A stretch of 64,000 bases of DNA from the NCBI GenBank assembly GCA_964407835.1, contig CAYOXB010000001.1, positions 45,174-109,173 on the forward strand. The letters run 5' to 3'. A program made the position numbers and the translations under genes. This DNA comes from an uncultured Bacteroidales bacterium. Lineage in GTDB: Bacteria; Bacillota_I; Bacilli_A; ML615J-28; CAG-698. The notes below the pieces were generated by a model. That model was given only the letters and a program-made list of their open reading frames with translations. It did no database searches and was not told the origin of the DNA. Positions 4,245 to 55,762 of the stretch are shown piece after piece (positions within the stretch are counted from its first letter, which is position 1; each line of letters opens with the position of its first letter).

Positions 4245-6134
4245 TTAGTTTGCAGGGATTGTTGAATAGTAGTTTTTAGTTTGAACAAATCCTGTAGAAG
4301 GATTTTCAACTGTAATTAAGAAACTTATTTGAGTTGTAGTCGCAGGTAACTTAACTATTCTACCATTATTATTAACAAGATCCGGATTATTTGAAACTAG
4401 AGTTAAGTTATAATCGCCTAGGAATTTTTCTACTAAATATTCTGCTTCAATCATATTTAATAAATTAGGGATTAATCCATTCATTCTCATAGTTTGAGGA
4501 CAGTTTTTACCACTATAGTTTTGGTGGAAAGTAACTCTTTCTAAACCTAAATCAAATTCATGTAATAAGTGTGAAGTTAATTTAGAAGTATAATGCCATG
4601 TTAAATACAAGTCACTGCCTTTATCTACACATGTTTCCATACTAACACTATTATAGTTACCACCATGATTAGAAATTAGTTTATAAGTAGTGTTATAGTA
4701 ACTATTATTCATATACCAATTTCCGTTTGTGCCAATTTCTAAGTAAATCCCATAGTCATTAATAGCAGAGGCTTTTAATATATTATTATTCGAATCTTTA
4801 GGTGCTTGAATAATAGTTTTTGCACCATTAAGTGTATAGAAACCACTAGCATCAATTCCAAGAGTTGGTCTAATTTTACTTGTTGCTTTAACGCCTGTAT
4901 CGTTTAAACCGAATTTTCTTGAACCATCTCCAGCATGCCATGTAGGTCTGTTAGTTTCAACTTGTTGATAAACACCTTCTTGCCCTACACTAAAATGCCA
5001 AGATACTTGTCCGCCACCACTTCCATTATACATATAAGTAGCGTGCATTGCTGCACCTGCATTAACATTTGTATTACCAGTATCATGAATAGTAATAAAT
5101 TTTACATCTTCCTTATTCATTACATTTGTAATAGCAGGTAAGTTTGGCGAGTTTTCAGGTGTCATTCTTCTAACAAAAGGATATTCTCCGAAGAAATAGT
5201 TAACTACGCTTCCCAATACTTTTGTTGTGTAGTTTGTCCCACCATATGCAGTTACGTTTTGAACGATTGGTTTATCAACAACTAAATGGTCGATTAAATC
5301 CATAACATCCCAATAGAATTCTACTTTTAGAGTTCCTTTTTTAGTTCCATCTTGAATTGATTTAGCAGTAAATGTAACTTCGCCATAACTAACTATAGTT
5401 ACAAATCCATCTTCACCAATAGCAGCAATACTGTCATCGCTTGTTTCCCATACTACGTTTTGATCCGCAGCTTTTGGAAGAACAGTTGCTGATAGTTTAT
5501 AATTGGCTGTTGTTTTGATTCTAGTGTCATTAATATTTGCACTAATATTTACTTCACTAACAGCAGCTTCAGTAACTTCAATAGTAAATGCTTTGCTAGT
5601 CCCATTTTCAAGTGAATGCACTTCAAATTGGGCAACCCCAGGTTTAACACCAGTAACTAGTCCTGTTTGGCTAACTTTAGCAATACTAGCAGTTAATGCA
5701 ACCCACATAACACCGTGTCCAGTATCTGCTTTATCAACAGCTGTAAGTTGAATTTCTTCACCAGCAATAACAGTAGTCGGGCCAGTCACTGTTAATTGAG
5801 TAGCTGGATCAATTTCCTCTTCATTTACTTTTACATTAATAGTTATTTTTAGTTTAGGATACTCTTCAACAGTAACCGTGATTTTAGCACTACCAGATTT
5901 TAATGCTGTAATTTTTCCGTCTTCGTCTACGCAGACAACGTCTTCACAATCAGATTCAAATTTAAATTTTACATTGTTTTCTGTACCATTTACTTTAGGT
6001 AGAATAACTTCCTCATCACCTATTTCTAAGGTTAGGTTAGATTTAGAAGCGCTTAAAGTAACGTCTTCAGTATTGTTACAACCTACTAATAGAAAACCGA
6101 TTAAAACAAAAAGTAAGATAATACTTTTTTTCAT
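4245..6134 (-). CDS. Lipoprotein with Big_2 (bacterial Ig-like) domain and amidase_2-type N-acetylmuramoyl-L-alanine amidase domain (paralog 2)
   Basis: Lipobox 'LLVGCN'; Big_2-like 'GSAKITVTV'; amidase_2 signature 'IHDTG...SWHFSVG...WHAGDG...ETCVDKGS...HQNYSGKNCPQ'. Confidence 0.7.
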   Translation of the reverse strand: MKKSIILLFVLIGFLLVGCNNTEDVTLSASKSNLTLEIGDEEVILPKVNGTENNVKFKFESDCEDVVCVDEDGKITALKSGSAKITVTVEEYPKLKITINVKVNEEEIDPATQLTVTGPTTVIAGEEIQLTAVDKADTGHGVMWVALTASIAKVSQTGLVTGVKPGVAQFEVHSLENGTSKAFTIEVTEAAVSEVNISANINDTRIKTTANYKLSATVLPKAADQNVVWETSDDSIAAIGEDGFVTIVSYGEVTFTAKSIQDGTKKGTLKVEFYWDVMDLIDHLVVDKPIVQNVTAYGGTNYTTKVLGSVVNYFFGEYPFVRRMTPENSPNLPAITNVMNKEDVKFITIHDTGNTNVNAGAAMHATYMYNGSGGGQVSWHFSVGQEGVYQQVETNRPTWHAGDGSRKFGLNDTGVKATSKIRPTLGIDASGFYTLNGAKTIIQAPKDSNNNILKASAINDYGIYLEIGTNGNWYMNNSYYNTTYKLISNHGGNYNSVSMETCVDKGSDLYLTWHYTSKLTSHLLHEFDLGLERVTFHQNYSGKNCPQTMRMNGLIPNLLNMIEAEYLVEKFLGDYNLTLVSNNPDLVNNNGRIVKLPATTTQISFLITVENPSTGFVQTKNYYSTIPAN

Positions 6135-6245: not shown

Positions 6246-8129
6246 TTAAATTTTAATTGTTGAATAGTAGTATTTAGTTGATGTAACACCTGTTGTAGGA
6301 TGAGTTACTTCTACAAGGAAACTTACTTGAGTAGTAGCATCTGGTAATTTAATAATCTTACCATGATTATCTACATATTCAGGATTGTTTGATGTAAGAG
6401 TGAATGTATAATCACCAAAGAATTTAGCAATTAAATATTCAGCTTCAACTAATTTTCTAAAATCCCCAACTAGGCCATTTCTTCTCATTGTTTGTGGGCA
6501 GTTTTTACCACTAAAACTATGGTGGAATTGTTGTCTATCTAAACCTAGGTTATTAGCTAATAATACTTCAGAAACAATTTTAGCTGTATAGTGCCATGTT
6601 AAGAATACATCTGAGCCAGCGTTAACCATAGTTTCAATACCAATACTGTTTCTATTTCCACCTTGGTTAGAAATGTTTGGTCCTTGAGTTGAATAATAAG
6701 AATTATTTATAAACCAATTTCCATTTGTACCGACTTGCATAGCAATTCCATAATCATTAATTGCTGCAGCTGTTAAGATTGAACCATCAGTATGTCTTGG
6801 AGCTTCAACAATTGTTTTTACACCATTAAGTGTATAGAAACCAGTAGAATCAATTCCAAGCGTAGGTTTAATTTTACTTACAGCTTTAACGCCTGTATCG
6901 TTCATCCCATATACTCTTGATCCGTCTGAAGCATGATATGATATTTCATTTAGTGGAATTTGTAGGTAAACACCATCATTACCAATACTGTAATGCCATG
7001 ATGTTCCACCGCCACCATTATATACATAGTTTGCATGTGCAGAAGCAGTTGCTCCTGGTGCAGCTGAACCAGTGTCATGAACAGTAACGAATTCAGTTGA
7101 TGGTTGTAAAATTCCAGGTCTGTTTTCGTTTGTGCTTGGAGCTATCTTTTCATAGTAAGGATATGTTCCAAAATAATAACTAGTTACACTACCTTTAATT
7201 ACTTGAGGATATTTTTCATATCCTGCTTCATAACCATAGTAGAATGCATTTTTATCAACAACAGGATTTTCAATTATAATGTAATCCATTAAGTCCATAA
7301 CGTCCCAATGGAATTCTACTGTAAGAGTAGCTTTCTTTGTTCCATCTTGAATAGATTTAGCAGTAAATGTAACTTCACCATAAGTAGAGATTGTTACAAA
7401 TCCATCTTCACTAATTAAAGCTATGCTATCATCGCTTGTTTCCCATACTACATTTTGATCTGCAGCTTTTGGAAGAACAGTAGCTGATAGTTTATAACTT
7501 GCAGTTGTTTTAATTTTTGCATCACCTATATTAGCACTAATACTAACTTCACTAACTGGAGCTTCAGTAACTTCAATAGAAAAAGCTTTGCTAGTTCCAT
7601 TTTCAAGTGAGTGAACTTCAAATTGAGCAGTTCCAGGTTTTACACCTGTAACTAAACCAGTTTGACTTATTTTTGCAATTCCAGCAGTTAAAGCAACCCA
7701 CATAACACCATGTCCTTGGTCTGCTTTATCAACAGCTGTAAGTTGAATTTCTTCGCCTGCAACAACAGTAGTTGGGCCAGATACTGTTAATTGAGTAGAA
7801 GGATCAATTTCCTCTTCATTAACAGTTACATTAACAGTTGCTTTTAGTTTAGAAAATTCTTCAACAGTAACGGTAATTTTTGCACTACCAGATCCTACAG
7901 CTTTTACTTTCCCTTCTGCATCAACTGTTGCAACTTCTAAATTATCTGATTCAAAATTAAATTTGACATCTTTTTCTGTACCTTCTATTTTAGGTGTGAT
8001 AACTTTTTCTTCCCCAATTTCTAGTGTTACACTAGTTGGTGAAGCGCTTAAAGTAACGTCCTCAGTTTTATTACAACCTACTAATAGAAAACCGATTAAA
8101 ACAAAAAGTAAGATAATACTTTTTTTCAT
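6246..8129 (-). CDS. Lipoprotein with Big_2 domain and amidase_2 domain (paralog 1)
   Basis: First 20 aa identical to the 4245-6134 product. Residues about 100-280 are nearly identical, while the C-terminal amidase_2 half is diverged ('VHDTG...SWHYSIG...IGIETMVNAGSD...HHSFSGKNCPQ'). Confidence 0.7.
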   Translation of the reverse strand: MKKSIILLFVLIGFLLVGCNKTEDVTLSASPTSVTLEIGEEKVITPKIEGTEKDVKFNFESDNLEVATVDAEGKVKAVGSGSAKITVTVEEFSKLKATVNVTVNEEEIDPSTQLTVSGPTTVVAGEEIQLTAVDKADQGHGVMWVALTAGIAKISQTGLVTGVKPGTAQFEVHSLENGTSKAFSIEVTEAPVSEVSISANIGDAKIKTTASYKLSATVLPKAADQNVVWETSDDSIALISEDGFVTISTYGEVTFTAKSIQDGTKKATLTVEFHWDVMDLMDYIIIENPVVDKNAFYYGYEAGYEKYPQVIKGSVTSYYFGTYPYYEKIAPSTNENRPGILQPSTEFVTVHDTGSAAPGATASAHANYVYNGGGGTSWHYSIGNDGVYLQIPLNEISYHASDGSRVYGMNDTGVKAVSKIKPTLGIDSTGFYTLNGVKTIVEAPRHTDGSILTAAAINDYGIAMQVGTNGNWFINNSYYSTQGPNISNQGGNRNSIGIETMVNAGSDVFLTWHYTAKIVSEVLLANNLGLDRQQFHHSFSGKNCPQTMRRNGLVGDFRKLVEAEYLIAKFFGDYTFTLTSNNPEYVDNHGKIIKLPDATTQVSFLVEVTHPTTGVTSTKYYYSTIKI

Positions 8130-15096: not shown

Positions 15097-15107
15097 AATT
15101 ATTGTAA

Positions 15108-15272
15108 ATCTTCAGGGCAGGGTGAGATTCCCGACCGGCGGTAAAGTCCGCGAGCTTGAAAGAGCATGAATTGGTGAAACTCCAATACCGATAGTATAGT
15201 CTAGATGAAAGAAGAGCTATATTTAATATGCTTTTTTTTGCTCGCGAAGTTTTTTCGCGAGTTTTATTTTTT
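15108..15272 (+). promoter_or_regulatory. FMN riboswitch (RFN element) with terminator expression platform
   Basis: Matches the RFN consensus: 'cagggcagggtgagattcccgaccggcggtaaagtccgcgagc...ggtgaaactcc...ccgatagtatagtctagatg'. It is followed by the hairpin 'ctcgcgaagttttttcgcgag' plus TTTTATTTTTT (15241-15271). Confidence 0.85.
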
Positions 15273-15291
15273 AAAAAGAAAGAGGGTTATT

Positions 15292-16185
15292 ATGTTTTTA
15301 AGTAGTTTTTGGCAAGATCATTGGTTAGAAATTAGTGTTTCTACAGTGTTTGTGCTAGCAAGTATTGCTTTACTTGTTGCACTGGTTATTAATATCGGAA
15401 AGCAAGAAACAAGCAAAAAAGTCTATGTAATAGGAAGTTTTATATTTGCACTTGTATTGTTCAGTGTTAACTTCTTTATTTATAAAGATTATAAGAATGC
15501 ATTGAGTCAAGACCCGACTACTGAATTTCCACTTGCAAATGTTTTTGCATATAATGCACTTATAATTATTGCATTTTCTCTAGTTGGTTACTTAGTTATC
15601 TCAAGGAGGAATAAAGAAGAAGAAAAAATGACAGTTGCTAATGTTGCAATGTTAAGTTTATTAGTAGCACTATCAACAGTATTGATGTTGTTTGGAATAC
15701 CAATACTACCTGGATTTACATTTTTAAAAGTTGAAATTAGTGCTTTAATTTATTTCTTAGTTTATTTGTGGTTTGGAATAAAACCAACAACGGTAGTCAT
15801 TTTTCTTACAAATATAATTCATGCTATTATGCCATCATTTGGTGTTCAAATTGTACCTGGACTTGATCAAATGGTAAATGTTATAGCAGTATTTACATTT
15901 TTGTTTCCTTCATTTATTGCATTTAGGAAATTAGAAGAAGGAGAAGTTCCACCGTTTAAATCTGTTTTAGTTTGTACTATAATAGGCGTTGTGTTTACTT
16001 CAGTCTTTATGCTTTTATATAATTACTTTATAAATTTACCACTTATTTATGGTATGAATATGTCATTTGAGGATGTGCTAAAAATATTTGGGTTATTTAA
16101 TATTATAAAATGGAGTACTGTTAGTGCTGCCATAGTATTACTATACAAAAAACTATATGAATTGAAGAATCAATTAGTAAGATAA
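15292..16185 (+). CDS. Membrane protein, putative riboflavin transporter (ECF S-component/RibU-like C-terminal half)
   Basis: RBS AAGAAAGAGGG before ATG 15292. The protein is multi-TM. The ORF-track start at 15205 lies inside the riboswitch and is rejected. Confidence 0.6.
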   Translation: MFLSSFWQDHWLEISVSTVFVLASIALLVALVINIGKQETSKKVYVIGSFIFALVLFSVNFFIYKDYKNALSQDPTTEFPLANVFAYNALIIIAFSLVGYLVISRRNKEEEKMTVANVAMLSLLVALSTVLMLFGIPILPGFTFLKVEISALIYFLVYLWFGIKPTTVVIFLTNIIHAIMPSFGVQIVPGLDQMVNVIAVFTFLFPSFIAFRKLEEGEVPPFKSVLVCTIIGVVFTSVFMLLYNYFINLPLIYGMNMSFEDVLKIFGLFNIIKWSTVSAAIVLLYKKLYELKNQLVR

Positions 16186-22967: not shown

Positions 22968-23029
22968 TCAATAAGATTGACAAGGAACAAAAGAAGTTGT
23001 ATAATAATTAATATAAAACTGTGAAGTGG

Positions 23030-23236
23030 ACAAGATTAATAAAATTTTTATTTATAGCGAAAGTATGATAGTGAAAGATACTTAATAAAACTTATTAGTT
23101 ACTACCGTGGAGTTGAACTCGAAAGAGATTCCGTTATTCAGCGTTAATGAAATTGAGCGCAGTAGTGTTTTTAAACACTATTGAATTAAGGTGGTACCAC
23201 GTTATAATACGTCCTTTTTAGAAGGGCGTTTTTATT
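23030..23236 (+). promoter_or_regulatory. T-box leader (Thr) upstream of thrS
   Basis: Conserved T-box 'aattaaggtggtaccacg' (23184-23201), then the terminator cgtcc/tttttagaa/gggcg plus a T-run (about 23208-23236). Stem I region with ACU/ACC candidates ('ttagttactaccgtgg'). Confidence 0.8.
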
Positions 23237-23251
23237 TTTTAGGAGGATAAT

Positions 23252-25162
23252 ATGAAAATTAGTTTTTTAGATGGAAGTGTGAGTGAATATAAAGATGGCC
23301 TAAGTGCTATGGATATTGCTAAAAGCATATCTCCATCTCTAGCAAAGAAATCAATATTTGCTAAAGTAAACGGTGAAGATTATGATTTGAACAGACCAAT
23401 ACTAGCTGATGCAACACTTGAATTAATTACAAAGGAGAGAGTTGAAGCTTTAGAAGCTTTGAATCATTCTTGTAGTCATTTACTTGCAAGTGCTGTTAAG
23501 AAATTATATCCGAAGGCACAATTTGGAGTTGGTCCAGCAATTGAAGAAGGATTCTATTATGACATTAATCCTGGGGATAATGTTAAGATAACTGAAGCTG
23601 ATCTAGTTAAAATAGAAGATGAGATGAAGAAAATTGCTAGTAAAAATTATGATTTTATTCGTGAAGAATTATCAAAAGAAGAAGCTTTGAAGAAGTTTTC
23701 TTATGATAAATACAAACAAGAAATTATAAATGAACTTGAGGATGGTGTAGTTATTTCTACATACACTCATGGGGATTTTTCTGATCTTTGTAGAGGACCG
23801 CATTTAGATAATACTAAGCATTTAAAATATTTTAAATTACTTAATATTAGTGGTGCCTATTGGAGGGGAGATTCTAAAAATGAGCAGCTTCAAAGAATAT
23901 ATGGAACATGCTTTTTTAATCAAGAAGATTTGAATAAGCACTTAGAAGTATTAAAAGAAAGAGCTGAGAGAGATCATCGTAAACTTGGGCGTGAGCTTGA
24001 ATTATTCATGTTAAGCGAATATGGTCCTGGCTTTCCTTTCTGGTTACCTAAGGGTATGATTCTTCGTAGAGCACTAGAAGAATACTGGTTCAAGGTTCAC
24101 ACTAGAGAAAATTATCAGTTCATTCAAACTCCAATTATGCTTAATAAAGACTTATGGGAGATATCAGGACACTGGTTAAACTATAAAGATAATATGTATA
24201 TTTCAGAAATTGACAAGCATGAATTTGCGATTAAACCGATGAATTGTCCTGGAGGATTGTTGGTATATAAACACTCCCTACACTCATATAAAGACCTTCC
24301 TCTTAGAGTTGGTGAACTAGGATTAGTTCATAGACATGAAGCAAGTGGGGCTTTAAATGGCTTATTTAGAGTAAGAAACTTCACTCAAGATGATGCTCAT
24401 ATCTATATGAGAGAAGATCAAATTATCGATGAAGTAGGAAATTTAATTAAATTATTTGATGAAATTTATTCAGTTTTTGGTTTGAAATATCACATTGAAT
24501 TATCTACAAGGCCTGAAGAAAAGTATATTGGGTCTATCGAAGTTTGGGATAAATCAGAAAAAGCACTAGCAAAAGCATGCGAAGCAGTAGGAAAAAATTA
24601 CAAAGTAAATCCTGGTGATGGAGCGTTTTATGGACCTAAATTAGACTTCAAATTACGCGATTCAATGAATAGAGTATGGCAATGTGGAACTATTCAGCTA
24701 GATATGAATTTACCAGAAAGATTTGATATATTCTATATTGGTGAAAATGGTGAGAAGGTTAGACCAGTTATGCTACATAGAGCTATTTTTGGTTCGCTTG
24801 AAAGATTTATTGGAATTTTAATTGAACATTATGGTGGAGCTTTTCCAACATGGCTTGCCCCTGTACAAGTAAAACTAATTCCGGTTAATAATACTTATCA
24901 TTTAGAGTATGTAAATAAAGTGAAAGATATTTTATTAGATGCTAATATTAGAGTAGAAGTAGATTCTAGAGAAGAAAAATTAGGCTATAAAATTAGAGAA
25001 GCACAAACTAAGAAAATACCTTATCAATTAATTATTGGTGATAATGAGGTTAAAGAAGAAGTTTTAACTTATCGTGCTTATGGTAAGCAAGAATCAGTAA
25101 CTTTATCTATTCTCGAATTTGTGGAAAAAATTCAAAAAGAAATTAAAAACTTAGGTCAATAG
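23252..25162 (+). CDS. thrS: Threonine--tRNA ligase
   Basis: TGS domain, editing domain with 'HSCSHLLA', and class II core. Confidence 0.97.
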   Translation: MKISFLDGSVSEYKDGLSAMDIAKSISPSLAKKSIFAKVNGEDYDLNRPILADATLELITKERVEALEALNHSCSHLLASAVKKLYPKAQFGVGPAIEEGFYYDINPGDNVKITEADLVKIEDEMKKIASKNYDFIREELSKEEALKKFSYDKYKQEIINELEDGVVISTYTHGDFSDLCRGPHLDNTKHLKYFKLLNISGAYWRGDSKNEQLQRIYGTCFFNQEDLNKHLEVLKERAERDHRKLGRELELFMLSEYGPGFPFWLPKGMILRRALEEYWFKVHTRENYQFIQTPIMLNKDLWEISGHWLNYKDNMYISEIDKHEFAIKPMNCPGGLLVYKHSLHSYKDLPLRVGELGLVHRHEASGALNGLFRVRNFTQDDAHIYMREDQIIDEVGNLIKLFDEIYSVFGLKYHIELSTRPEEKYIGSIEVWDKSEKALAKACEAVGKNYKVNPGDGAFYGPKLDFKLRDSMNRVWQCGTIQLDMNLPERFDIFYIGENGEKVRPVMLHRAIFGSLERFIGILIEHYGGAFPTWLAPVQVKLIPVNNTYHLEYVNKVKDILLDANIRVEVDSREEKLGYKIREAQTKKIPYQLIIGDNEVKEEVLTYRAYGKQESVTLSILEFVEKIQKEIKNLGQ

Positions 25163-46984: not shown

Positions 46985-47254
46985 ATGTACCATTCCTTCT
47001 ATAAAACTATTGAATATATTATAACATAAAAAGGCTGAATAAAAAAGCACAAAATATACAATTTTTTTTGTTTTTTTATTGCTAATTTAAAAAAAATATT
47101 CTTAGTTAATTGTTGATTAGGAAAAATTTAACAAGCAAAAACACAATAATAAAGGATTAAAATTATCTTGCATTTTTTAAAAAAATAATATTTGTTAAAT
47201 GGTGGTTCGTTTGGTATAATATAAATACCTATGGAAATAAAAAGGGTGAAAAAT

Positions 47255-50200
47255 ATGGTAAGAGCAGAATACAAAAAATTAAATATTTCTGTTAGAGAAA
47301 GTCATTTAATTGATATTTATTCCGATACTTCTAAATATTTAGAACTTGGAACCATTCATTTCGCTATTTTGAAAAAGTTATTAAAGTATGAACAAATTAA
47401 CTTTAAAGAAATAGCGTTTTTACCCATTCAAAATTTTGGTATAGGAAAAAGCACAATTAATAATGAAAATCTTAAATCTACTATGCCCTATTATTATTTC
47501 AATAATGTTAACCAAAAGAATAAACCTTATCAAGTTTTTTTAACTCATGGATTAATTAGGTATCGTGATTTACAAGATAAAGAAATATTCTCCCCACTGA
47601 TTTTAATACCTGTTGAAATTTTATTTGATGGTGATGAAGTATATATTCAAATGATTTCTGAACCGATTGAGAACAAACCTTTATTAGAGTATTTGGATCG
47701 TGCTAAGAAAATACTTATTCCCAGTGTAGATAAACTTGATACTCTTGGAAATATTGAAAAGTATTTTATGAATATTCTTAAATATAGTGAATTCAATTTC
47801 GAGTTTGAGAACTATATGACTTATGCATATGTCCAAAAACCAGAGATTATTATTAATCAAAATAAGTTTAATTTAAGTAGACAATATGATGACTTCTTAT
47901 ATGAAAATTTATTCAGTGAAGACCATATAGTATTTTATTCAAAAAAACATAATAGAAAACAAAGAAGAGCGCTGATGCAAGCTATTGAAGGCGAATCATT
48001 TGTTATTGCTGGTAGACTTGGAACTGGTAAAACAACAGTAATGAAAGACATTGCTGTGAATGCTATAAGTAGTGGCAAAAGAGTATTATATGTATCTAAT
48101 GTAGATAATACACTTAACGAAGTAAATGAATTTATGAAAGGAAAAGGACTTGGTTATTATGTTACTAATTTCACAAAACCTTTTTCCACATTTTTAAAAT
48201 CTGATGAACTTAAATTTGTTCAAGGAGATTTAACTAGAGCAAGTAATTTTGATAGTTTATTATCAAACTATAAATATATAAATGATTATCAACTAGCAAT
48301 GACAGGAAGAGTACTTGATCATCGCTTTATTGATGTAGTTAATGAACTTATAAACTTAAGTAGAGTCGATAAAGAAAAAATAGAAATAGATAATTTATCC
48401 GATATATACAAACACGAGTATTTAGAAATAGTCGACTCTGTAAAGACAATCCAACAATCTATTGGAAATTTTGATAATTTTAAAGACAGTATTTGGAAAG
48501 ACATTCCAATTATTAATGATATTAAATATCCTAATCAAGTAATGTTTTTGATTCACCAAGTTTATAATGGCTTTGATGAGTTAAAAAAATATAAAGATAG
48601 TTTAATTGAAAATTATAAGTTTGTGGAAATATCTAATTATGCTTTTATGAAAAACATAATTAATAATATAACGCAATTGCCTGTACAAGATGTTCCAAAG
48701 TCTTGGGCTGAACAAGATAATTATGAAAAAGCCAAAACTGAATATCATAATTTAAAGAATTTAATTTTCACATTACAAGAACTTGAATATGATCTTGATA
48801 TAAGGTTTGAGAATTTAGATAAGTTTGAAATTAAAAAAGAGCTAGAGATTTTATATGGTAGTTTCTTCACTAGCGATAATCTTGATAAAATTAATAAAAT
48901 TATAGATGATCGTTTAGAAATTGTTGTTACTTTGAATAAAATAACAATGCAAATCGATATTTTTAATAAAGCAATTCATAAAATTAAAAATGCAATAGAT
49001 TATAATTTTGAACTATCAAACGATGTGCTTAATGAAGTACTTGCAATGTCTCAAACATTATTAGATACAAAAGCAAATTCAAAATTTATTAAAGCAATTG
49101 TGAGAGGTGAATTTGAAAACACTTATAATATTGCAAATAAGTATTTTGATAAGTATAACGATATTAATAACCAAATAGAAAACTTATTTTTAGATCTGGA
49201 ACTTCCTAATATTGAAGAATTAGATATAAAGAATAAAATACAACTTATTATTGATTTTGAAAGAGGATTGAAATTAAAACGACCATATCGTCAAATTGTT
49301 TCAAAGTTAAAAGCAAAAGATATTGAAAACTATAAATCAGTATTAATTAATATTAAAAAATCTCAACAATTAGAAATTGAAAAAGAAGAAGTAGCTGATA
49401 AATTCATAGCACTTTTAGATTGTGAACTAAAAAAAGAATACTTAGATGATTTTAAAAATCTTTATGATTATGTAGAAAATATTGAAGATGCTCATATGAA
49501 GGCAAAGATTTTAAAATCCTTAAGAAGGATTTCTAATTTACATGAAAATCAAACTAAAAATTTCTCTAGAGTTTTAAGTTATTTTATTAAATCACATCAA
49601 AAGATAATAGAGATGTATAAAGAGTTATTGATCCATGAATTTGTCGATGAAAAAAATGAATTTGATGAGATATTAAAAGATATCTATTCAATCAATTCTT
49701 ATATTAAGAAATTGAATGAATCAAATGATACTTTATATTCAATGAAAAAAATAAGCCGTGATGAATATATCAAAGCTCAAGATTATTATTATCTAGATGA
49801 AACATATAATAAAATAGCGGAAGTTAAAGAGGAACTAAAGTTCAATAAAGAATTCCCATATTTGTTTGGTTCGATATATAAAAGACAGGCTACAGATTTA
49901 GCGTATCTTGCTAGAGTTATTCAAGCATATAGACTATATGTAAGTTCATTTGAATCGTATTCTTCTGCGGTGAATAGTTTAAATCCAGAAGTTTATTCAG
50001 GTATAACAAATGTATTAAATAAATCATCTGTTGCTATTGATGATTTAAACGAAGTGTTTAAGCAGTATTTTAAGATTTTCAAAAATTCTGTTTCACAACT
50101 ATACTATGGATTGTTTGATGATAATTTAAGTAATTTATTAATTCAAATGGAAAACAGAGAAGATTTAATTACATATTTGAAAATCACAGATAATTTACAA

Positions 50201-51559
50201 GTTCTTGAAAAATATCATTTATATAAACTCATTGAACATATAGTTAGTATGGAAAGAACAACAACACTATTAACTGATTTTAAATTTACATACTTTTCTA
50301 CATTGAATGATATATATCTAAAGGATAATCAATATTTAAGAGATTATAAAACATTTGAACTTGCTCTTAAAACTACAGTCGAAGTAGAAGAAGAGATTAT
50401 GAGAGCAATAGAAGAAAGAATAGTTAGAAAGATTATTAGACGTAGTGTAAATAAATACAATATGTTTGGGTTTAAACATTTAGATTATAATGCTTATCTT
50501 AAAAAAACAAATAGAATAAAGCACTTAGTTCTTACAAATACTCAAATCTTAAACAATTTTATTGACCCTAATTTATTTGACTTAATATTAATTGATGATG
50601 CCCATATATTCTCAGCTAGTGAGTATGTATATGCACTGGAAGGAAAACAAGTAATAGTTAGTGGTGAGTTGCAATTCCAAGAAGCAGCACTCAACAACTT
50701 GATTTCAAGAATAAGTATGGGTAAGAGTATAGAACTAAATTATAGATACGATATAATACCTAAAGGCTTTAAAGACTTCACACGAAGATTGAAAGCTCCA
50801 ATTTACAATCAATACTATGAAAACTATGGTGTTGAGATTATTGAAAAGGGTATTTATAAATATGTAGCTAATCTTTTTACAATTAATAAAAATTGTAGTG
50901 TTAACTTATTTATAGCTGATGCTGAAGTTCAAAGACAAGCATATGATAAAATAGCTAATTTCTTACTTACAAATAATTTTAAAGAAGAAGAAATTATTGA
51001 GATTTATAAAAGACAACTAAATATAGTTGATTTAAAAAAGGGTTATTTAATTAATGCTAATTATAATGTTTTGTTTATTCAAGATTATTATGAACTTGAT
51101 ACTGAGTATTTGGTTGTTAATATGATCGATAACCTTATCTTAACTAGAAAGAAATTAATCATTTATGATAATAAAGATTTTCTTTCCACAAAATCTAATG
51201 CAATATTCTTAACAGAACTCAATAAGATAATTAATTCAAGAGATGTATTTAAAAAGCCTGAACCTATAGGCACCATTGAAAAACTAATTAGTGCTCTTGA
51301 AGCTGAAGATATAACATGCTTTGCTTCTGAGCTTGGGACATTTATAATAAAAGTAGGTTATAGCTTATACGGTATTACTGTTTATTGGGATTCTAGAAAA
51401 ACAAATTATGATATATTAAATGAATTTAGAGATATTCATTCTCTAAAAGATCCTAGGATCAAGAAAAACATTATTGTCTGGTCAATGGAGTTGATTGAGA
51501 ACTTTGATGGTGTTATTCAAAGAATACTAAAAGAGGTAGCGCATGATTCGGGGAAGTAA
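47255..51559 (+). CDS. Giant Upf1-like SF1 helicase/NTPase (1434 aa from 'MVRAEY'; DUF4011-helicase-like architecture) with an insertion of about 850 aa between motifs I and II
   Basis: Q-motif/Walker A 'QRRALMQAIEGESFVIAGRLGTGKTT' (nt 48011-48037). Motif II/III-like 'LILIDDAHIFSASEYVYALEGKQVIVSGELQ' (nt 50582-). Motif IV-like 'LNYRYDII'. Motif VI-like 'ILTRKKLIIY'. RBS AAAGGGTG before ATG 47255. Confidence 0.6.
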   Translation: MVRAEYKKLNISVRESHLIDIYSDTSKYLELGTIHFAILKKLLKYEQINFKEIAFLPIQNFGIGKSTINNENLKSTMPYYYFNNVNQKNKPYQVFLTHGLIRYRDLQDKEIFSPLILIPVEILFDGDEVYIQMISEPIENKPLLEYLDRAKKILIPSVDKLDTLGNIEKYFMNILKYSEFNFEFENYMTYAYVQKPEIIINQNKFNLSRQYDDFLYENLFSEDHIVFYSKKHNRKQRRALMQAIEGESFVIAGRLGTGKTTVMKDIAVNAISSGKRVLYVSNVDNTLNEVNEFMKGKGLGYYVTNFTKPFSTFLKSDELKFVQGDLTRASNFDSLLSNYKYINDYQLAMTGRVLDHRFIDVVNELINLSRVDKEKIEIDNLSDIYKHEYLEIVDSVKTIQQSIGNFDNFKDSIWKDIPIINDIKYPNQVMFLIHQVYNGFDELKKYKDSLIENYKFVEISNYAFMKNIINNITQLPVQDVPKSWAEQDNYEKAKTEYHNLKNLIFTLQELEYDLDIRFENLDKFEIKKELEILYGSFFTSDNLDKINKIIDDRLEIVVTLNKITMQIDIFNKAIHKIKNAIDYNFELSNDVLNEVLAMSQTLLDTKANSKFIKAIVRGEFENTYNIANKYFDKYNDINNQIENLFLDLELPNIEELDIKNKIQLIIDFERGLKLKRPYRQIVSKLKAKDIENYKSVLINIKKSQQLEIEKEEVADKFIALLDCELKKEYLDDFKNLYDYVENIEDAHMKAKILKSLRRISNLHENQTKNFSRVLSYFIKSHQKIIEMYKELLIHEFVDEKNEFDEILKDIYSINSYIKKLNESNDTLYSMKKISRDEYIKAQDYYYLDETYNKIAEVKEELKFNKEFPYLFGSIYKRQATDLAYLARVIQAYRLYVSSFESYSSAVNSLNPEVYSGITNVLNKSSVAIDDLNEVFKQYFKIFKNSVSQLYYGLFDDNLSNLLIQMENREDLITYLKITDNLQVLEKYHLYKLIEHIVSMERTTTLLTDFKFTYFSTLNDIYLKDNQYLRDYKTFELALKTTVEVEEEIMRAIEERIVRKIIRRSVNKYNMFGFKHLDYNAYLKKTNRIKHLVLTNTQILNNFIDPNLFDLILIDDAHIFSASEYVYALEGKQVIVSGELQFQEAALNNLISRISMGKSIELNYRYDIIPKGFKDFTRRLKAPIYNQYYENYGVEIIEKGIYKYVANLFTINKNCSVNLFIADAEVQRQAYDKIANFLLTNNFKEEEIIEIYKRQLNIVDLKKGYLINANYNVLFIQDYYELDTEYLVVNMIDNLILTRKKLIIYDNKDFLSTKSNAIFLTELNKIINSRDVFKKPEPIGTIEKLISALEAEDITCFASELGTFIIKVGYSLYGITVYWDSRKTNYDILNEFRDIHSLKDPRIKKNIIVWSMELIENFDGVIQRILKEVAHDSGK

Positions 51560-52118
51560 GAGAATATTTAATGATTTTGTGAGAACGGTTAAACAAGACT
51601 CACATCGTTACTACTATATTAAAAGTAATTTATTAAAAATGCGCGAAGAAAACATTGATATAAATACTCAAATATATGGTGGTCAAACATTACTCCATGT
51701 TGCTTTAAAACTAAAAAACATTAGATTATTTAAATTGTTTTTAAAGTATGGAGTAAATCCGGATATTGCCAATGACTTAGGAGAAGCTCCTATTCATAAG
51801 GCCATTTTAAAAAACGAGTTTAATTTCTTAAAAGCCCTTGTAGGAAATGGCTGTGATATTAATCTTGGTGCTGAACTAGAACAAACTCCTCTTCATTTAG
51901 CTGTAATTACAGGTAATGTAGATATTGTTAAGTATTTAGTTGATAATAATGCTAGAATTTTAATTCAAGATGAAAATTATAATTATCCATTAGATTACGC
52001 AATTGATGAAGGAGATTGTGATATAATTAAGTACTTCTTAACTAAACAGGAAGTAGATGAAACAAGAAAAGAAAAAATTAATCAATTGATGGAAAAAGCA
52101 GGTGAAAAAGAATGTTGA
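51543..52118 (+). CDS. Ankyrin-repeat protein (about 4 ANK repeats), translationally coupled to the helicase
   Basis: 'GQTLLHVALK...GVNPDIAND', 'GEAPIHKAILKNEFNFLKALVGNGCDINL' and 'TPLHLAVITGNVDIVKYLVDNNA'. RBS AAAGAGGTA. Its ATG overlaps the helicase 3' end by 17 nt. Confidence 0.75.
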   Translation: MIRGSKRIFNDFVRTVKQDSHRYYYIKSNLLKMREENIDINTQIYGGQTLLHVALKLKNIRLFKLFLKYGVNPDIANDLGEAPIHKAILKNEFNFLKALVGNGCDINLGAELEQTPLHLAVITGNVDIVKYLVDNNARILIQDENYNYPLDYAIDEGDCDIIKYFLTKQEVDETRKEKINQLMEKAGEKEC

Positions 52119-52918
52119 AATTTCAAGAAATTTTGGATATGATTCGCTCTTATACTGGTGAATATTCTGTAATAGGGTTTGTTCGTTTAGGAATTGATGT
52201 ACTATTATTACTAGCAGTGTTATTTATCGTCTATAAGATAATGAAAAAAAGAACACATGGTGTTCGAGTTTTTCTAGTTGTACTTGGAGCTATTGCTTTA
52301 TATGCAGTAAGCTTTGTGTTCCAATTTAAAATGTTTTTAAAGGTATTGGATTATCTTTTCTTTTGGAGTTTAGGAGCTTTGTTAATTGTATATGCTGGTG
52401 AAATTAGACATTCGCTTGATTATTTCTTTGCACCTACAAAGGTGTCAGCTGCTTATTCAAACAAAGAAGAAAAACAAGAAATTATTAGTACATTAGTTTC
52501 AACTGCAGAGTTCTTATCTAAACGTCGTTTGGGTGCTTTAATAACAGTTGAAAGAGAAGACAATCTTAACTCTTATATTGATAAAGCAATTTTCATCAAT
52601 GGAAATGTTTCTCAAGAGTTACTAACTACAATTTTTACTCCAGGTACTGCAGCTCATGACGGTGCTGTAATTATTCGAAAAAGCAAAATAATGTGTGCAG
52701 CTGCCTATTTCCCGTCGACTGATAGATATGATGTTCCAAAATCACTTGGAACAAGACATAGAGCAGCGATTGGAATTAGTGAGAAGACAGATTCACTTAC
52801 TATCGTTGTAAGTGAAGAAACTGGCTTTATTTCTATTGCAATTGATGGTAATATTAACATTAATCAAACAGTTGAAAAACTAGAAGAAATGTTAGATAGA
52901 TATTTAATCAATAAATAA
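52112..52918 (+). CDS. cdaA: Diadenylate cyclase CdaA (c-di-AMP synthase)
   Basis: Three N-terminal TM segments plus DAC domain 'TPGTAAHDGAVIIR...LGTRHRAAIGISEKTDSLTIVVSEETG'. Its start overlaps the ANK stop (ATGTTGA). Confidence 0.9.
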   Translation: MLKFQEILDMIRSYTGEYSVIGFVRLGIDVLLLLAVLFIVYKIMKKRTHGVRVFLVVLGAIALYAVSFVFQFKMFLKVLDYLFFWSLGALLIVYAGEIRHSLDYFFAPTKVSAAYSNKEEKQEIISTLVSTAEFLSKRRLGALITVEREDNLNSYIDKAIFINGNVSQELLTTIFTPGTAAHDGAVIIRKSKIMCAAAYFPSTDRYDVPKSLGTRHRAAIGISEKTDSLTIVVSEETGFISIAIDGNININQTVEKLEEMLDRYLINK

Positions 52919-52939: not shown

Positions 52940-52967
52940 TTGAAAAATATTTAATTTATGATATAAT
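52940..52967 (+). promoter_or_regulatory. Promoter for the PAS/GGDEF-like gene
   Basis: -35 TTGAAA, a 16-nt spacer, extended -10 TGATATAAT. Confidence 0.5.
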
Positions 52968-53051
52968 GTGAATATATAGAAGGCTAAAAGGATAGAAAGA
53001 ATTTGGTTTAATTACCAAACTAAAAATTAGAAAAGATTAAAGGTGGATTAT

Positions 53052-54554
53052 ATGATTCCAGAATTAGTAGAATTAGTAAAAGAATATTATTATTTATTGT
53101 TTGTTGCTGGTCTAATTGTTATGTTTTTCTTAGTTTTAAGTATTTTACTTAATAAGAAAAAAGCAGCAATTGTTCCAGGAAGCCTTTTTGCTGTATATGC
53201 TATCCTATTTACAGTTTCTGTCTTCTATAAAGAAAAATTAACAGGTAGAATTATTTTAGCTTTTGGCATATATGTATTCCTTGAAGGAGTCTTTACCTTA
53301 GTTATGGCCACAATTTCATATCTTGAAAAACGTAAGTTTAATTTATTGTTTCAATTATCATCTTCGATTGATAGTGCGATATTAGTTTATTTAAATGAAA
53401 AAGGTGAAATAGTATTTTTCACAAAAGAATTCTTAAATATGTTTGATGTTAACAATGCAAAAGACTTTGAACAAATAGTAAAATATGTTCATTTAGGCGA
53501 AAGACAAATGTCATATAAGGCGTTTTTAAAAATCCTAACTTATGAAAAAGAAGAAGACTATGCACTCATTATTGATTTATTTAATACTAAAGAAAAAAGA
53601 TTGCATGTATCTAAAAGAAAGATTATCAATAATGGTAAATTACTTGGTTATGTATTAATCAATAAAAAGGATCAAGTATTCCAAGAAGATACACCAACAA
53701 CATATCAAGTTGATGCAATTAACTTAGTTAATGAAGCACTTGCTATTTATGAAAGTGATAATAATAAACTACTAATTAATAATAAAATGCAAAACTTACT
53801 CGGTGTAGATAGTGTAAATAGTTTAGATGAATATATTTATGCTGAAGATAAAAAGCAAATTGAAAAAAGAGCAAGAGCAGAAGGCGAAAAATCTAAGATT
53901 TACTATCGCATTAATGCTCAAAACAATCGTGTATGGGTTTTAGAGACTTGTACAATTGCTAGGGGCAAATTAACTAAAGTAGTTAGAGAAACAGACTTTA
54001 AAAACTTAATTTATAATTTTAGAGATTATTCTAAAATGGTTCAAGAATTAGAGCATAATATAGCAATGAGTACAAATTTTGCTTTAGTCTTTGTAACTCT
54101 ACATACACTTACTCAAATAAAAGAAAAAATTGGTAAAGATGCTTCAATGGTTCTTGCTACGCAATTCTTTATTAATTTAAATAATGAAATTAAAGATTTA
54201 AAAGTATTTGAAATAGGTTATTATAAATTTGCATTCTTTATTAAAAATGAAGCTGCATATAAAAATATTTTAAGAGATCTTAATAATAATGCTTCTAGAC
54301 TGCAAAAGACAAAAATTATATTTAATGATTTAGCATTTGAAATCAAGACTTATTTAGGGCTTGTGGAAAGCAAAAATGTTCTTAATCCAACGCCTGAATT
54401 AATGATTGAAGCTGCAGAAGGTGCATTAGAATTAGCTTCTAATAAAAACTATCCGAAAGACTTTAGCATTTATATTTCTAAAGTTAAAGAATTAGAAGGC
54501 GAAGAGAGAGAAATAGACTTAAGTGATGATTTTCTACAAAGGATTATGAAGTAA
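53052..54554 (+). CDS. Membrane-anchored sensor-like protein: 3 TM segments, PAS-like region(s), C-terminal degenerate GGDEF-like domain
   Basis: Hydrophobic N-terminus. PAS-like 'SSIDSAILVYLNEKGEIVFFTKEFLNMFDV'. Cyclase-fold-like 'ALVFVTLHTLTQIKEKIGKDASMVLATQFF...VFEIGYYKFAFFI', where YYKF replaces GGDEF. No YbbR repeats are visible, so it does not look like CdaR. Confidence 0.45.
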   Translation: MIPELVELVKEYYYLLFVAGLIVMFFLVLSILLNKKKAAIVPGSLFAVYAILFTVSVFYKEKLTGRIILAFGIYVFLEGVFTLVMATISYLEKRKFNLLFQLSSSIDSAILVYLNEKGEIVFFTKEFLNMFDVNNAKDFEQIVKYVHLGERQMSYKAFLKILTYEKEEDYALIIDLFNTKEKRLHVSKRKIINNGKLLGYVLINKKDQVFQEDTPTTYQVDAINLVNEALAIYESDNNKLLINNKMQNLLGVDSVNSLDEYIYAEDKKQIEKRARAEGEKSKIYYRINAQNNRVWVLETCTIARGKLTKVVRETDFKNLIYNFRDYSKMVQELEHNIAMSTNFALVFVTLHTLTQIKEKIGKDASMVLATQFFINLNNEIKDLKVFEIGYYKFAFFIKNEAAYKNILRDLNNNASRLQKTKIIFNDLAFEIKTYLGLVESKNVLNPTPELMIEAAEGALELASNKNYPKDFSIYISKVKELEGEEREIDLSDDFLQRIMK

Positions 54555-54571
54555 TTTAAGTTTTCAAATCG

Positions 54572-54600
54572 GGACTAATTAATTAGTCCCTTTATTTTTT
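54572..54600 (+). terminator. Terminator
   Basis: gggactaatt/aattagtccc followed by TTTATTTTTT. Confidence 0.8.
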
Positions 54601-54613
54601 AAAGAGGTATGAT

Positions 54614-55762
54614 ATGTTTGATGTTATTTTATTAATTGCTGGAAAAGGCAAGAGAACAAAATTAGATTATAATAAAACTCTATACTTGATTAATGATAAA
54701 CCTATATTTAAGTATTCACTTGATATCTTTTTAAAGATGAAAGAATTGAATAAGGTTGTTTTAGTCATTGATAAAGAAGATGAAGATATTGTAAATGAAT
54801 ATATTAAAGATATAAATTCTAATAAAATTGAAATAGTATATGGTGGACTTGAAAGACAAGATAGTGTAAAAAATGGAATCGATAAATGTTCAAGCGATGT
54901 TGTTTTAATTCACGATGGTGCAAGAGCATATATAGAAGAAGGACAAGTTCAAAGTGTTTATGATAATGCTAGAAGATATAATGCTTCTGCTTTAGCAGTA
55001 AAAACTACGGATACTATAAGAGAATTAAAAAAAGGCTCTTCAAACATTGTTGATCGCAATTTACTTTGGAATATGCAAACGCCACAAGGTGTTAATTTAC
55101 AGATGTTTAAAGAAGCTCTTAAAAAAGCATATGAAGATAATTATTATGGAACAGATGATTTAAACTTACTTGAAAAATATTTTGATATTGTACCTAAGCT
55201 TGTAGAAGGAAGTAAAAAGAATCTAAAATTCACAACAATTGATGATTTAGATTATTTAAAATTTATATTAGGAGAGCAAAAGATGGAATATAGAATAGGT
55301 CATTCTAATGATACTCATCGTTTAGAGGCGGGAAGAAAGTTAATCTTAGGTGGAGTTGAGATAGACTATCATTTAGGGCTAATTGGTCATTCTGATGCTG
55401 ATTGTATTTATCATGTTGTAAGCGAAGCTATTATAGGTGCTCTAGGACTTGGTGATATTGGAAGTCATTTTCCGGATAATGATAAAAAATACAAAGATCA
55501 AGACTCTAGTTATTTTGTTGTTGAAGCAAGGAAGTTAATGGAAAAGGAATTATATATTATCAATAATTTAGACTTGATTGTTTATGCAGAGAATGTTTAT
55601 TTAAACCCTCATATAAATACAATAAGAGATAATATTGCGAAGCTTTTGATCTGTGATAAATCAAGAATTAATATAAAAGCAACAAGAAGAGAAAAGCTAG
55701 GGTTTGTTGGTAGAGAAGAAGGAATATCAGCTGAAGCAGTAGTTTTGCTGAAAAAGAAGTAA
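54614..55762 (+). CDS. ispDF: Bifunctional MEP cytidylyltransferase / MEcPP synthase (IspDF)
   Basis: IspD N-half 'ILLIAGKGKR'. IspF C-half 'RIGHSNDTHRL...GHSDADCIYHVVSEAIIGALGLGDIGSHFPD'. Confidence 0.9.
   Translation: MFDVILLIAGKGKRTKLDYNKTLYLINDKPIFKYSLDIFLKMKELNKVVLVIDKEDEDIVNEYIKDINSNKIEIVYGGLERQDSVKNGIDKCSSDVVLIHDGARAYIEEGQVQSVYDNARRYNASALAVKTTDTIRELKKGSSNIVDRNLLWNMQTPQGVNLQMFKEALKKAYEDNYYGTDDLNLLEKYFDIVPKLVEGSKKNLKFTTIDDLDYLKFILGEQKMEYRIGHSNDTHRLEAGRKLILGGVEIDYHLGLIGHSDADCIYHVVSEAIIGALGLGDIGSHFPDNDKKYKDQDSSYFVVEARKLMEKELYIINNLDLIVYAENVYLNPHINTIRDNIAKLLICDKSRINIKATRREKLGFVGREEGISAEAVVLLKKK

Follow-up and report, generated by a model that had tools for sequence, protein, structure and literature searches.

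What is the function of a small ankyrin-repeat (ANK) protein whose gene lies between those of a giant helicase-like ATPase and a diadenylate cyclase? The question is raised by a 64,000-nucleotide (nt) stretch of DNA deposited under the name of an uncultured Bacteroidales bacterium (assembly GCA_964407835.1, contig CAYOXB010000001.1, positions 45,174 to 109,173 of the forward strand), and this whole stretch is referred to below as the window. In the preliminary description of the window, the ANK gene was paired with its upstream neighbour, read as a superfamily 1 (SF1) helicase gene, and the ANK protein was suggested to be an adaptor or regulator of that helicase. Here, the giant ATPase gene, the ANK gene and cdaA are found to overlap at both junctions, so arranged that they are predicted to be one translationally coupled unit. 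The role tentatively favoured for the ANK protein, at slightly less than even confidence, is that of an adaptor within a three-protein assembly controlling cyclic di-AMP (c-di-AMP) synthesis and not that of a private subunit of one neighbour. The features of the unit are as follows, with lengths in amino acids (aa).

47231..51559, forward strand (+): giant SF1B/Upf1-like P-loop ATPase, 1442 aa from the first ATG; from the open reading frame (ORF), profiles, AlphaFold2 (AF2) and Foldseek.
51533..51537, forward strand (+): Shine-Dalgarno sequence GAGGT for the ANK gene, read from the sequence, within the last codons of the giant gene and with a 5-nt spacer to ATG 51543.
51543..52118, forward strand (+): ANK-repeat protein, 191 aa; from Pfam, AF2, Foldseek, ortholog alignments and charge and hydropathy analysis.
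52100..52105, forward strand (+): Shine-Dalgarno sequence AGGTGA for cdaA, read from the sequence, within the 3' end of the ANK gene and with a 6-nt spacer to ATG 52112.
52112..52918, forward strand (+): diadenylate cyclase CdaA, 268 aa, N-terminal transmembrane region and DAC domain; from NCBIfam and Pfam.

The ANK ORF runs from an ATG to a TGA stop at 52116-52118, and its product was confirmed to carry four ANK repeats. The Pfam model Ank_2 (PF12796) was matched with E=5.5e-23 and 81.8 bits against a gathering score of 27.3, and the other ankyrin models scored were likewise exceeded, namely Ank (PF00023, 74.3 bits against 21.1), Ank_3 (PF13606, 76.5 against 22.3), Ank_4 (PF13637, 73.1 against 22.7) and Ank_5 (PF13857, 72.8 against 27). 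In the AF2 model built with 30 orthologs (predicted local distance difference test score, pLDDT, 93.5; predicted template-modelling score, pTM, 0.86), four ANK helix pairs were seen at residues 50-68, 83-101, 116-134 and 149-166, with a spacing of ~33 residues, preceded by an N-terminal helical hairpin (residues 5-35) and followed by a C-terminal helix (residues 173-185). The motif quoted in the preliminary description, TPLHLAVITGNVDIVKYLVDNNA, is repeat 3. Designed ankyrin repeat proteins (DARPins) were the best PDB matches of the model in Foldseek (TM-score ~0.84 on the target, E ~1e-8), and the protein is predicted to be a compact, DARPin-sized binding module.

Like generic ANK modules and DARPins, the protein has stacked 33-residue helix-loop-helix repeats with TPLH motifs, arranged as an N-cap, ~4 repeats and a C-cap, and its conserved residues are on the loop and first-helix face, which serves in target binding. 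Unlike them, it belongs to a separate ortholog family with a signature of its own (ELEQTPLHLAV; DExN..PIDYAIDE), carries a basic N-terminal helical hairpin, and is encoded in a fixed genomic slot between the giant ATPase gene and cdaA. In 5.8 billion proteins, this family comprised 30 clusters at 90% identity, with members 175-209 aa long and 35-100% identical. Hydropathy analysis gave no signal peptide, transmembrane segment or other hydrophobic segment in the ANK protein, which is thus predicted to be soluble and cytosolic. Among the orthologs, the repeat core is acidic (median net charge -6) and the N-terminal 40 residues are basic (median +6). The residues that are invariant in the ortholog alignments beyond the generic ANK framework (E111, E113, Q114, D143, E144 and D151-Y-A-I-D-E156) occupy the hairpin loops preceding repeats 3 and 4 as well as the first helix of repeat 4, and the acidic, family-specific loop face that they form corresponds to the canonical ANK target-binding face, so that a putative binding face can be assigned here.

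At the upstream junction, the giant gene stop (51557-51559) overlaps the ANK start by 17 nt, and both the ribosome-binding site and the ATG of the ANK gene lie within the last codons of the giant gene, as had been described. The downstream junction has the same character, the ANK stop overlapping the cdaA ATG by 7 nt. Coupling to the giant gene stands as first proposed, but that picture was incomplete since the equal coupling to cdaA had been missed. The GC content of the three genes is 25-31%, compared to 29.6% for the window, and no c-di-AMP riboswitch was found in the window with Rfam.

The cyclase is a canonical CdaA. It scored 204.7 bits against NCBIfam TIGR00159, above the equivalog cutoff of 188.8, and matched Pfam DAC with 9.3e-39; its N-terminus is hydrophobic, and H182-D-G-A185 and R215-H-R217 are kept in at least 85% of the 48 ANK-containing lineages. 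Assignment to DisA was tried and rejected, with 34.1 bits for the DisA model against a cutoff of 201.

To display how far this arrangement is conserved, two sets of loci were collected. The giant-seeded scan covered one genome per GTDB species with a 9-sequence giant alignment as query and gave 38 loci, all from metagenome-assembled genomes (MAGs), and the ANK-seeded metagenome scan, with the ANK alignment as query, gave 80 loci. All loci were analysed by ORF calling and family hidden Markov model (HMM) searches, and gene starts were refined by HMM alignment. The order giant, ANK, CdaA was essentially invariant in ~125 related loci, which indicates that the ANK gene is not a chance ORF. Loci with ANK orthologs at 76, 62, 50, 47 and 38% identity all had the order giant-ANK-CdaA-(MGS)-400/520-aa protein-IspD-IspF. 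Among the 80 ANK-seeded loci, the giant gene was immediately 5' of the ANK gene wherever upstream DNA was present, and CdaA was immediately 3' of it in all ANK-seeded loci but L121. In the giant-seeded set, CdaA followed the giant gene in all 38 loci, with the ANK gene intervening in 34 of the 37 informative ones. From giant stop to ANK start, the median distance was -8 nt over 119 junctions, with values from -20 to +43; for the 118 distances between ANK stop and cdaA start, the median was -4 nt and the values ran from -26 to +167.

The co-occurrence of helicase-like and ANK genes in other genomes, which the preliminary description had asked about, was thereby observed at 119 junctions with the giant gene upstream. 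The ANK gene was present in 48 of 51 non-redundant lineages (<90% giant identity), and no ANK ortholog lacking the giant gene was found in ~120 loci. A 32% identical protein (P0032/L009) was considered as a further ortholog and excluded, being an unrelated ANK protein in another context. L121 was rejected as a real locus without CdaA, the contig being chimeric and turning high-GC ~50 nt past the ANK gene. At L121:1099-5304 (human gut), a low-GC, Acholeplasma-like giant 3' end and ANK gene are followed by high-GC DNA (DnaX etc.) judged to be Bacteroidetes-like, and the contig is probably an assembly chimera. Separately, cdaA is split into two ORFs in the metagenome contigs L029:4881-5686, L058:5999-6851, L066 and L080; each split is a frameshift that reflects a sequencing or assembly error or else a pseudogene.

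The lineages without the ANK gene are L012/L035/L038, a rumen and gut clade, and L045. In a neighbour-joining tree of giant plus CdaA, they are nested in two different ANK-containing clades, indicating two independent losses, and they are natural 'ANK-deletion' comparators. In their loci, cdaA comes directly after the giant gene, separated from it by 57 nt in the case of L012 and by 2 nt in that of L045. The L012 group locus is also without the PAS/GGDEF-like gene and IspD/IspF described below.

The three proteins differ in their rates of change. Mean pairwise identity was 47% for ANK, 48% for CdaA and 27% for the giant protein, and the nonsynonymous distance (dN, Nei-Gojobori) between the window and its closest relatives was 0.16, 0.16 and 0.38, respectively, with the synonymous distance dS saturated. 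From these values, the ANK protein is estimated to evolve as slowly as CdaA and ~2.3 times more slowly than the giant protein, and the ANK gene is under strong purifying selection. The distance matrices of giant and CdaA were correlated with r=0.92, consistent with vertical inheritance of both.

The giant protein begins with a DUF4011-like N-terminal region, to which a split RecA1 and a divergent RecA2 are joined, and it ends in a small C-terminal alpha/beta domain. Its family comprises 68 clusters that keep a strikingly constant length (1373-1445 aa) despite identity down to 23%. For the window protein itself, Pfam and NCBIfam gave the Walker A region and weak ProA/Hhe similarity alone, and no DUF4011 or AAA_12 match was obtained with Pfam. 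Among 19 family members, AAA_11 was matched in 12 and DUF4011 weakly in 7 (best 1.2e-05), and AAA_12 in none of the 19. The family profile matched IGHMBP2 (4b3f) with E=5e-10 over a span including Walker A and Walker B. In the AF2 model of residues 244-1442 with 65 homologs (pLDDT 86.1), RecA1 is interrupted by a ~750-aa all-helical insert, after which come an alpha/beta region and the small C-terminal alpha/beta domain. Foldseek matches of this model were SETX, Aquarius, Dna2, IGHMBP2, Sen1, UPF1, SLFN11 and nsp13, pointing to a modelled SF1B/Upf1-like two-RecA-domain fold. The two-RecA fold was recovered with E 4e-5 to 1e-3, and accessory domains are inserted in RecA1 as in the IGHMBP2/SETX/Sen1/UPF1/Dna2/Aquarius group; in contrast to that group, identity is 10-14%, the insert is all-helical and ~750 aa long, RecA2 is without a canonical motif V, and motif VI reads K/R-K-K, not TRA.

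Since motifs I, II, III and IV are conserved (G261, G266 and K267 in 65/65, D1122 in 65/65, D1123 in 63/65, Q1140 in 62/65 and R1172 in 60/65), ATP binding and hydrolysis by the giant protein are plausible. The SF1 helicase named in the preliminary description is therefore upheld as to its fold and justified in part as to the helicase motifs, of which V and VI are divergent.

As to its origin, the full N-terminal region of the giant protein (residues 1-340) was common to ~80-90 clusters at 50% identity in an exhaustive HMMER search; apart from fragments, these are 1.3-1.7 thousand amino acids (kaa) long, and the weaker matches are 1.1-2.8-kaa helicases. Three of the weaker matches have DUF4011, AAA_11, a ~850-aa gap, AAA_12 and an MTES_1575 nuclease domain, and two of them also have DUF3320. 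The giant family was aligned with one such DUF4011 protein by hhalign with probability 98.3 and E=1.2e-14 over residues 91-418, and the C-terminal domain was aligned moderately with MTES_1575 regions (probability 76%, E=2.3e-5). Pfam gave no DUF559/MTES_1575 match in this C-terminal domain even at E<=10, and no DUF3320 match in the giant protein, which has little sequence beyond the C-terminal domain. Against NCBIfam, ProA (NF058533) was matched with E=4.3e-18 and 64.2 bits (cutoff 1500) and Hhe (NF042953) with 8.9e-07 and 26.6 bits (cutoff 2000), and the PADLOC model PDC-S37 was matched partially with 1.4e-20 (residues 244-527). The giant protein resembles the DUF4011/Hhe helicase-nucleases in that its DUF4011-like N-terminal region leads into the Walker A part of AAA_11, in an insert of ~800 aa before the second half of the helicase core, and in the small C-terminal domain, which occupies the position of their MTES_1575 nuclease. 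It differs from Hhe, ProA and PDC-S37 in scores far under the family cutoffs and in its divergent motifs V and VI, and from defence-island Hhe genes in being core, syntenic, vertically inherited and near cdaA. On the strength of these profile comparisons, it was concluded to be a probable divergent relative of the DUF4011/Hhe helicase-nuclease group that is here a core gene. A core DUF4011 gene has a precedent, as one flanks cDHS1 in every P. aeruginosa isolate (PMC10250203).

The edges of the unit and the genes downstream of it are marked by the following features.

47192..47220, forward strand (+): promoter-like site TTGTTA, 17 nt, TG-extended TATAAT, upstream of the giant gene; consensus scan, 10/12 plus TG.
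52940..52967, forward strand (+): promoter-like site TTGAAA, 16 nt, TG-TATAAT, between cdaA and the 503-aa gene; consensus scan, 11/12.
53043..54554, forward strand (+): 503-aa membrane protein, PAS-like and degenerate GGDEF-like; from ortholog Pfam matches, family profile and synteny.
54571..54590, forward strand (+): intrinsic-terminator-like hairpin and T-run after the 503-aa gene; sequence scan.
54614..55762, forward strand (+): bifunctional IspD/IspF, the downstream syntenic anchor; Pfam IspD 1.8e-46 and YgbB 2.6e-55.

The promoter-like sites are consensus matches only, in an AT-rich region where 69 such sites were counted against 65.6 in shuffles (no enrichment). The site at 52940..52967 may mark the end of the tight three-gene unit, and the promoter-like and terminator-like sites together would fit a tight giant-ANK-cdaA unit. 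The first giant ATG, 47231, is merely 10 nt from the promoter-like -10 box. An alternative start at ATG 47255 (1434 aa) has a good Shine-Dalgarno sequence, AGGGTGA at 47243-47249, and agrees with the 1434-aa length of the NCBI protein P0034 and with the homolog alignments, which start at residue 9-10 of the giant protein; it is for these reasons probably the real start.

The 503-aa protein of the window has N-terminal transmembrane helices, and most lineages carry such a gene 3' of cdaA. The window protein gave no significant Pfam match and, by eye, seems to have no GGDEF motif. Among 18 orthologs, GGDEF was matched in 6 (best 6.5e-08) and PAS families in 5, 2 and 2, and the family profile matched the PDB diguanylate cyclase 3mtk with E=0.0066. 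The GGDEF-like domain is probably degenerate, and the protein may be a further part of the c-di-AMP module. In many relatives (L001, L004, L006), a 117-aa MGS-like gene (PF02142) lies between cdaA and the PAS/GGDEF-like gene; it is absent in the window, where the 124-nt gap holds the promoter-like site. The window and several lineages have a fused IspD and IspF, which are separate genes in many close relatives (L001, L004, L013), fusion and fission having recurred within one clade.

The organism is not a typical free-living Firmicute, the kind of organism mentioned in the preliminary description. Named homologs came from Acholeplasmataceae, Acholeplasmatales, Mollicutes, Tenericutes and "Bacilli" MAGs, and the host is an uncultured Acholeplasmataceae/Acholeplasmatales-like lineage; the use of TGA as a stop fits Acholeplasmatales rather than Mycoplasmatales. 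No cultured species was among the named matches listed in the ANK, giant and CdaA searches, and in a CdaA search aimed at cultured Acholeplasma, all 120 matches listed were MAGs. Most source samples of the ANK loci were anaerobic digesters, bioreactors or sludge. Several MAGs with the Acholeplasmatales-type locus (L024, L027, L045, L047) are publicly labelled 'uncultured Bacteroidales' or 'Staphylococcaceae', which are likely taxonomic mislabels.

The genes flanking the unit in the window are housekeeping genes, encoding a ribonucleotide reductase large subunit (divergent), an HflX-type GTPase, a uridine kinase, a MatE transporter and IspDF, and further ones encode an ABC transporter, an S1-domain protein and PGI. 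The locus is single-copy, and its gene order was syntenic across the clade in all loci examined. No mobile-element, prophage or defence genes adjoin it. Elsewhere in the window, two paralogs of ~628 aa with Big_2 and N-acetylmuramoyl-L-alanine amidase (Amidase_2) domains are encoded at 4245..6134 (-) and 6246..8129 (-), and Spore_YunB and Amidase_3 genes lie close to the locus in the relatives L004, L011 and L131. Such amidases in a supposedly wall-less lineage mean either that peptidoglycan is made or that the walls of other bacteria are attacked. An FMN (flavin mononucleotide) riboswitch (15104..15220, +, 108.5 bits) lies upstream of ORF 15205..16185, and a T-box leader (23012..23219, +, 103.2 bits) upstream of the threonyl-tRNA synthetase gene 23252..25162.

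Upstream of the giant gene, a ClpC-like AAA+ gene was present on the same strand in 19 of the 35 non-redundant lineages whose upstream DNA was long enough, both deep clades being represented; in the window, it is replaced by the divergent ribonucleotide reductase gene. IspD and IspF, split or fused, are downstream in most lineages. The ancestral order reconstructed from these loci would be ClpC-like, giant, ANK, CdaA, X, IspD, IspF. By analogy of gene order, this block parallels clpC-radA-disA-yacL-ispD-ispF of Bacillus subtilis, and the slot of the 503-aa gene is presumably the yacL slot in Bacillus. The three-gene unit is ancestral to a clade of uncultured Acholeplasmatales-like bacteria and occupies the radA-disA slot of other Firmicutes.

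In B. subtilis, disA and yacL are located downstream of radA (PMC6755099). According to the account of Zhang and He (2013) given in 10.1101/2022.06.29.498085, RadA was reported to bind DisA and inhibit c-di-AMP synthesis, and radA and disA are co-transcribed in mycobacteria. The present locus is like the RadA-DisA locus in that a gene for a nucleic-acid-motor-type ATPase lies directly upstream of a diadenylate cyclase gene (lpqE-radA-disA in mycobacteria) and in its ClpC-like upstream flank and downstream IspD/IspF. It is unlike that locus in that the cyclase is CdaA-type, membrane-bound and without the DNA-binding HhH, and in that the ANK gene is intercalated. No RecA, RadA or Lon domain was matched in the giant protein with Pfam or NCBIfam. 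The resemblance is positional and functional only, with the DAC domain as the sole homologous part, but it gives the close linkage of a motor-type ATPase gene and a diadenylate cyclase gene a precedent in function.

The other known systems are those of CdaA itself, which in other Firmicutes is controlled by operon partners, GlmM inhibiting CdaA/DacA by direct binding (PMC8573169, PMC6368335). As in the CdaA-CdaR-GlmM system, a membrane CdaA is encoded together with proteins presumed or known to bind and tune it. In contrast to that system, the partners here are non-homologous and are encoded upstream of cdaA instead of downstream, and the gene after cdaA encodes the transmembrane-PAS-degenerate-GGDEF protein. 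With Pfam and NCBIfam, no YbbR or phosphoglucosamine-mutase domain was found in the ANK protein or in the product of the gene after cdaA.

With these comparisons, the adaptor function can be stated. The ANK protein would be made together with, and in fixed proportion to, the giant ATPase and the membrane-anchored CdaA, and would act as a stoichiometric adaptor physically linking the soluble ATPase to CdaA. Its acidic loop face (E111, E113, Q114, D143, E144, D151, D155, E156) would hold a surface of its partner, and the ATPase, depending on its nucleotide or nucleic-acid state, would tune c-di-AMP synthesis, in the manner of RadA acting on DisA or of GlmM and CdaR acting on CdaA. A more far-reaching form of the adaptor proposal is possible but doubtful. 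In it, giant, ANK and CdaA would be a single physical signalling complex in which a domesticated Hhe-like SF1B helicase/nuclease-like ATPase senses nucleic-acid or chromosome status and switches the membrane-bound CdaA via ANK, a natural DARPin-like adaptor, replacing in situ the RadA-DisA checkpoint and the GlmM/CdaR control in a wall-less branch of the Firmicutes.

Several points weigh against an adaptor assembly of this kind. Operon membership can reflect co-expression only. The giant-CdaA adjacency is retained in both lineages that lost the ANK gene, and the ANK protein is therefore not indispensable to the link between the other two; nor do the ANK-less lineages share a residue or length signature or a compensating change in giant or CdaA. 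In the giant protein, motif V is without QG and position 1306 of motif VI is K in 32/65 and R in 19/65, and because of this divergence translocase or helicase activity is uncertain. The parallel with RadA is weakened in that the giant protein is SF1B/Upf1-like and not homologous to the RecA-like RadA; moreover, of the gene order in B. subtilis 168 it is the radA-disA-yacL part that PMC6755099 confirms, and a literature search gave no paper confirming the ispD/ispF part. Weak evidence in favour of the assembly comes from partial correlations controlling for IspDF distances, which were 0.74 for ANK-CdaA, 0.62 for ANK-giant and 0.75 for giant-CdaA; ANK-CdaA was 0.52 given IspDF and giant, compared to 0.15 for ANK-giant given IspDF and CdaA. 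Such mirror-tree correlations are unspecific, with giant distances near saturation and sequence pairs non-independent. Rates and mirror-tree values together lean weakly to CdaA as the ANK partner. Presence and absence, on the other side, argue for a dependence of ANK on the giant protein, without which no ANK ortholog was found, and for a primary link between giant and CdaA, whose adjacency outlasts the loss of ANK. An adaptor in a three-protein assembly would reconcile these lines best.

The first alternative, considered unlikely, is that the ANK protein is a subunit, regulator or assembly factor of the giant ATPase only, with CdaA merely co-transcribed. It would account for the absence of ANK orthologs without the giant gene while CdaA occurs throughout the Firmicutes without ANK, for the giant-ANK overlap being the tighter of the two junctions, and for the confinement of giant and ANK together to this clade. 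However, the ANK-cdaA junction is equally conserved, the rate of ANK is like that of CdaA and unlike that of the giant protein, and the length and motifs of the giant protein are unchanged in lineages without ANK. As CdaA follows the giant gene in every locus examined, the ANK-less ones included, the cdaA link is not incidental.

A rather improbable alternative is the converse one, that the ANK protein is a CdaA-specific regulator substituting for GlmM/CdaR in a wall-less lineage and blocking or promoting DAC oligomerisation, with the role of the giant protein unrelated. The overlap of ANK with cdaA and their equal rates agree with this, the partial correlations favour ANK-CdaA over ANK-giant, control by operon-encoded proteins has already been cited for CdaA in other Firmicutes, and no YbbR/CdaR or GlmM gene follows cdaA at this locus. 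It is countered by the finding that ANK and CdaA without the giant gene were seen in none of ~120 loci, and the invariant giant-CdaA adjacency argues for a functional tie between the giant protein and CdaA as well.

That the locus is an anti-phage system, with the giant protein as Hhe/ProA/PDC-S37-like sensor or effector, specificity conferred by an ANK subunit and the signal generated by CdaA, was judged very unlikely. The nearest annotated relatives of the giant protein are indeed defence proteins (ProA, Hhe, PDC-S37), and its remote homologs combine DUF4011, AAA_11, AAA_12, MTES_1575 nuclease and DUF3320, the MTES_1575 part being weakly aligned to its own C-terminus. Nevertheless, the ProA and Hhe scores are far under their cutoffs (64 vs 1500; 26.6 vs 2000), the cyclase scores above its equivalog cutoff as a canonical CdaA, large genes of the DUF4011 kind can belong to the core elsewhere, as in the P. 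aeruginosa case above, and the locus is single-copy, syntenic and housekeeping, with correlated giant and CdaA distances, no mobile or defence neighbours and unremarkable GC. Homolog pairs in defence islands or near prophages, which the preliminary description had raised, were not encountered, the same housekeeping neighbourhood being present in all loci examined.

Many bacterial ANK proteins are effectors, and the best NCBIfam matches here are Dot/Icm Ank effectors (AnkY 9e-15; the AnkH, AnkC and AnkX families were also scored), but a secreted or host-directed effector like those of Legionella/Coxiella, or an unrelated passenger gene, is the least likely explanation of all, as these matches are generic and repeat-only (best 54.1 bits vs a cutoff of 600; Dot/Icm Ank cutoffs 450-1400), there is no signal peptide or transmembrane segment and no secretion system nearby, the source samples are mostly from digesters, bioreactors and sludge, and the overlap with cytosolic and membrane housekeeping genes is kept across ~50 lineages.

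The ANK fold and the CdaA enzyme are ordinary, and it is the conserved three-gene arrangement and its position that appear to be undescribed. A literature search gave no paper on the pairing of the helicase-like and ANK genes, in line with the preliminary description, and nothing relevant was found on ankyrin together with diadenylate cyclase or on c-di-AMP in Acholeplasma. Many Firmicutes cannot do without c-di-AMP, and the question of what sets the activity of CdaA is still open; GlmM and CdaR, the inputs known so far, are tied to cell-wall synthesis, and most known bacterial ANK proteins are host-directed effectors. Against this background, a whole Acholeplasma-like clade keeps cdaA, in the radA-disA slot, in close linkage with the genes for a helicase-like ATPase of 1.4 kaa and an ankyrin protein. 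If the three proteins interact, this would be a new regulatory input for c-di-AMP, a rare housekeeping ankyrin adaptor in bacteria, and an instance in which a defence-type DUF4011 helicase was taken over for a core function.

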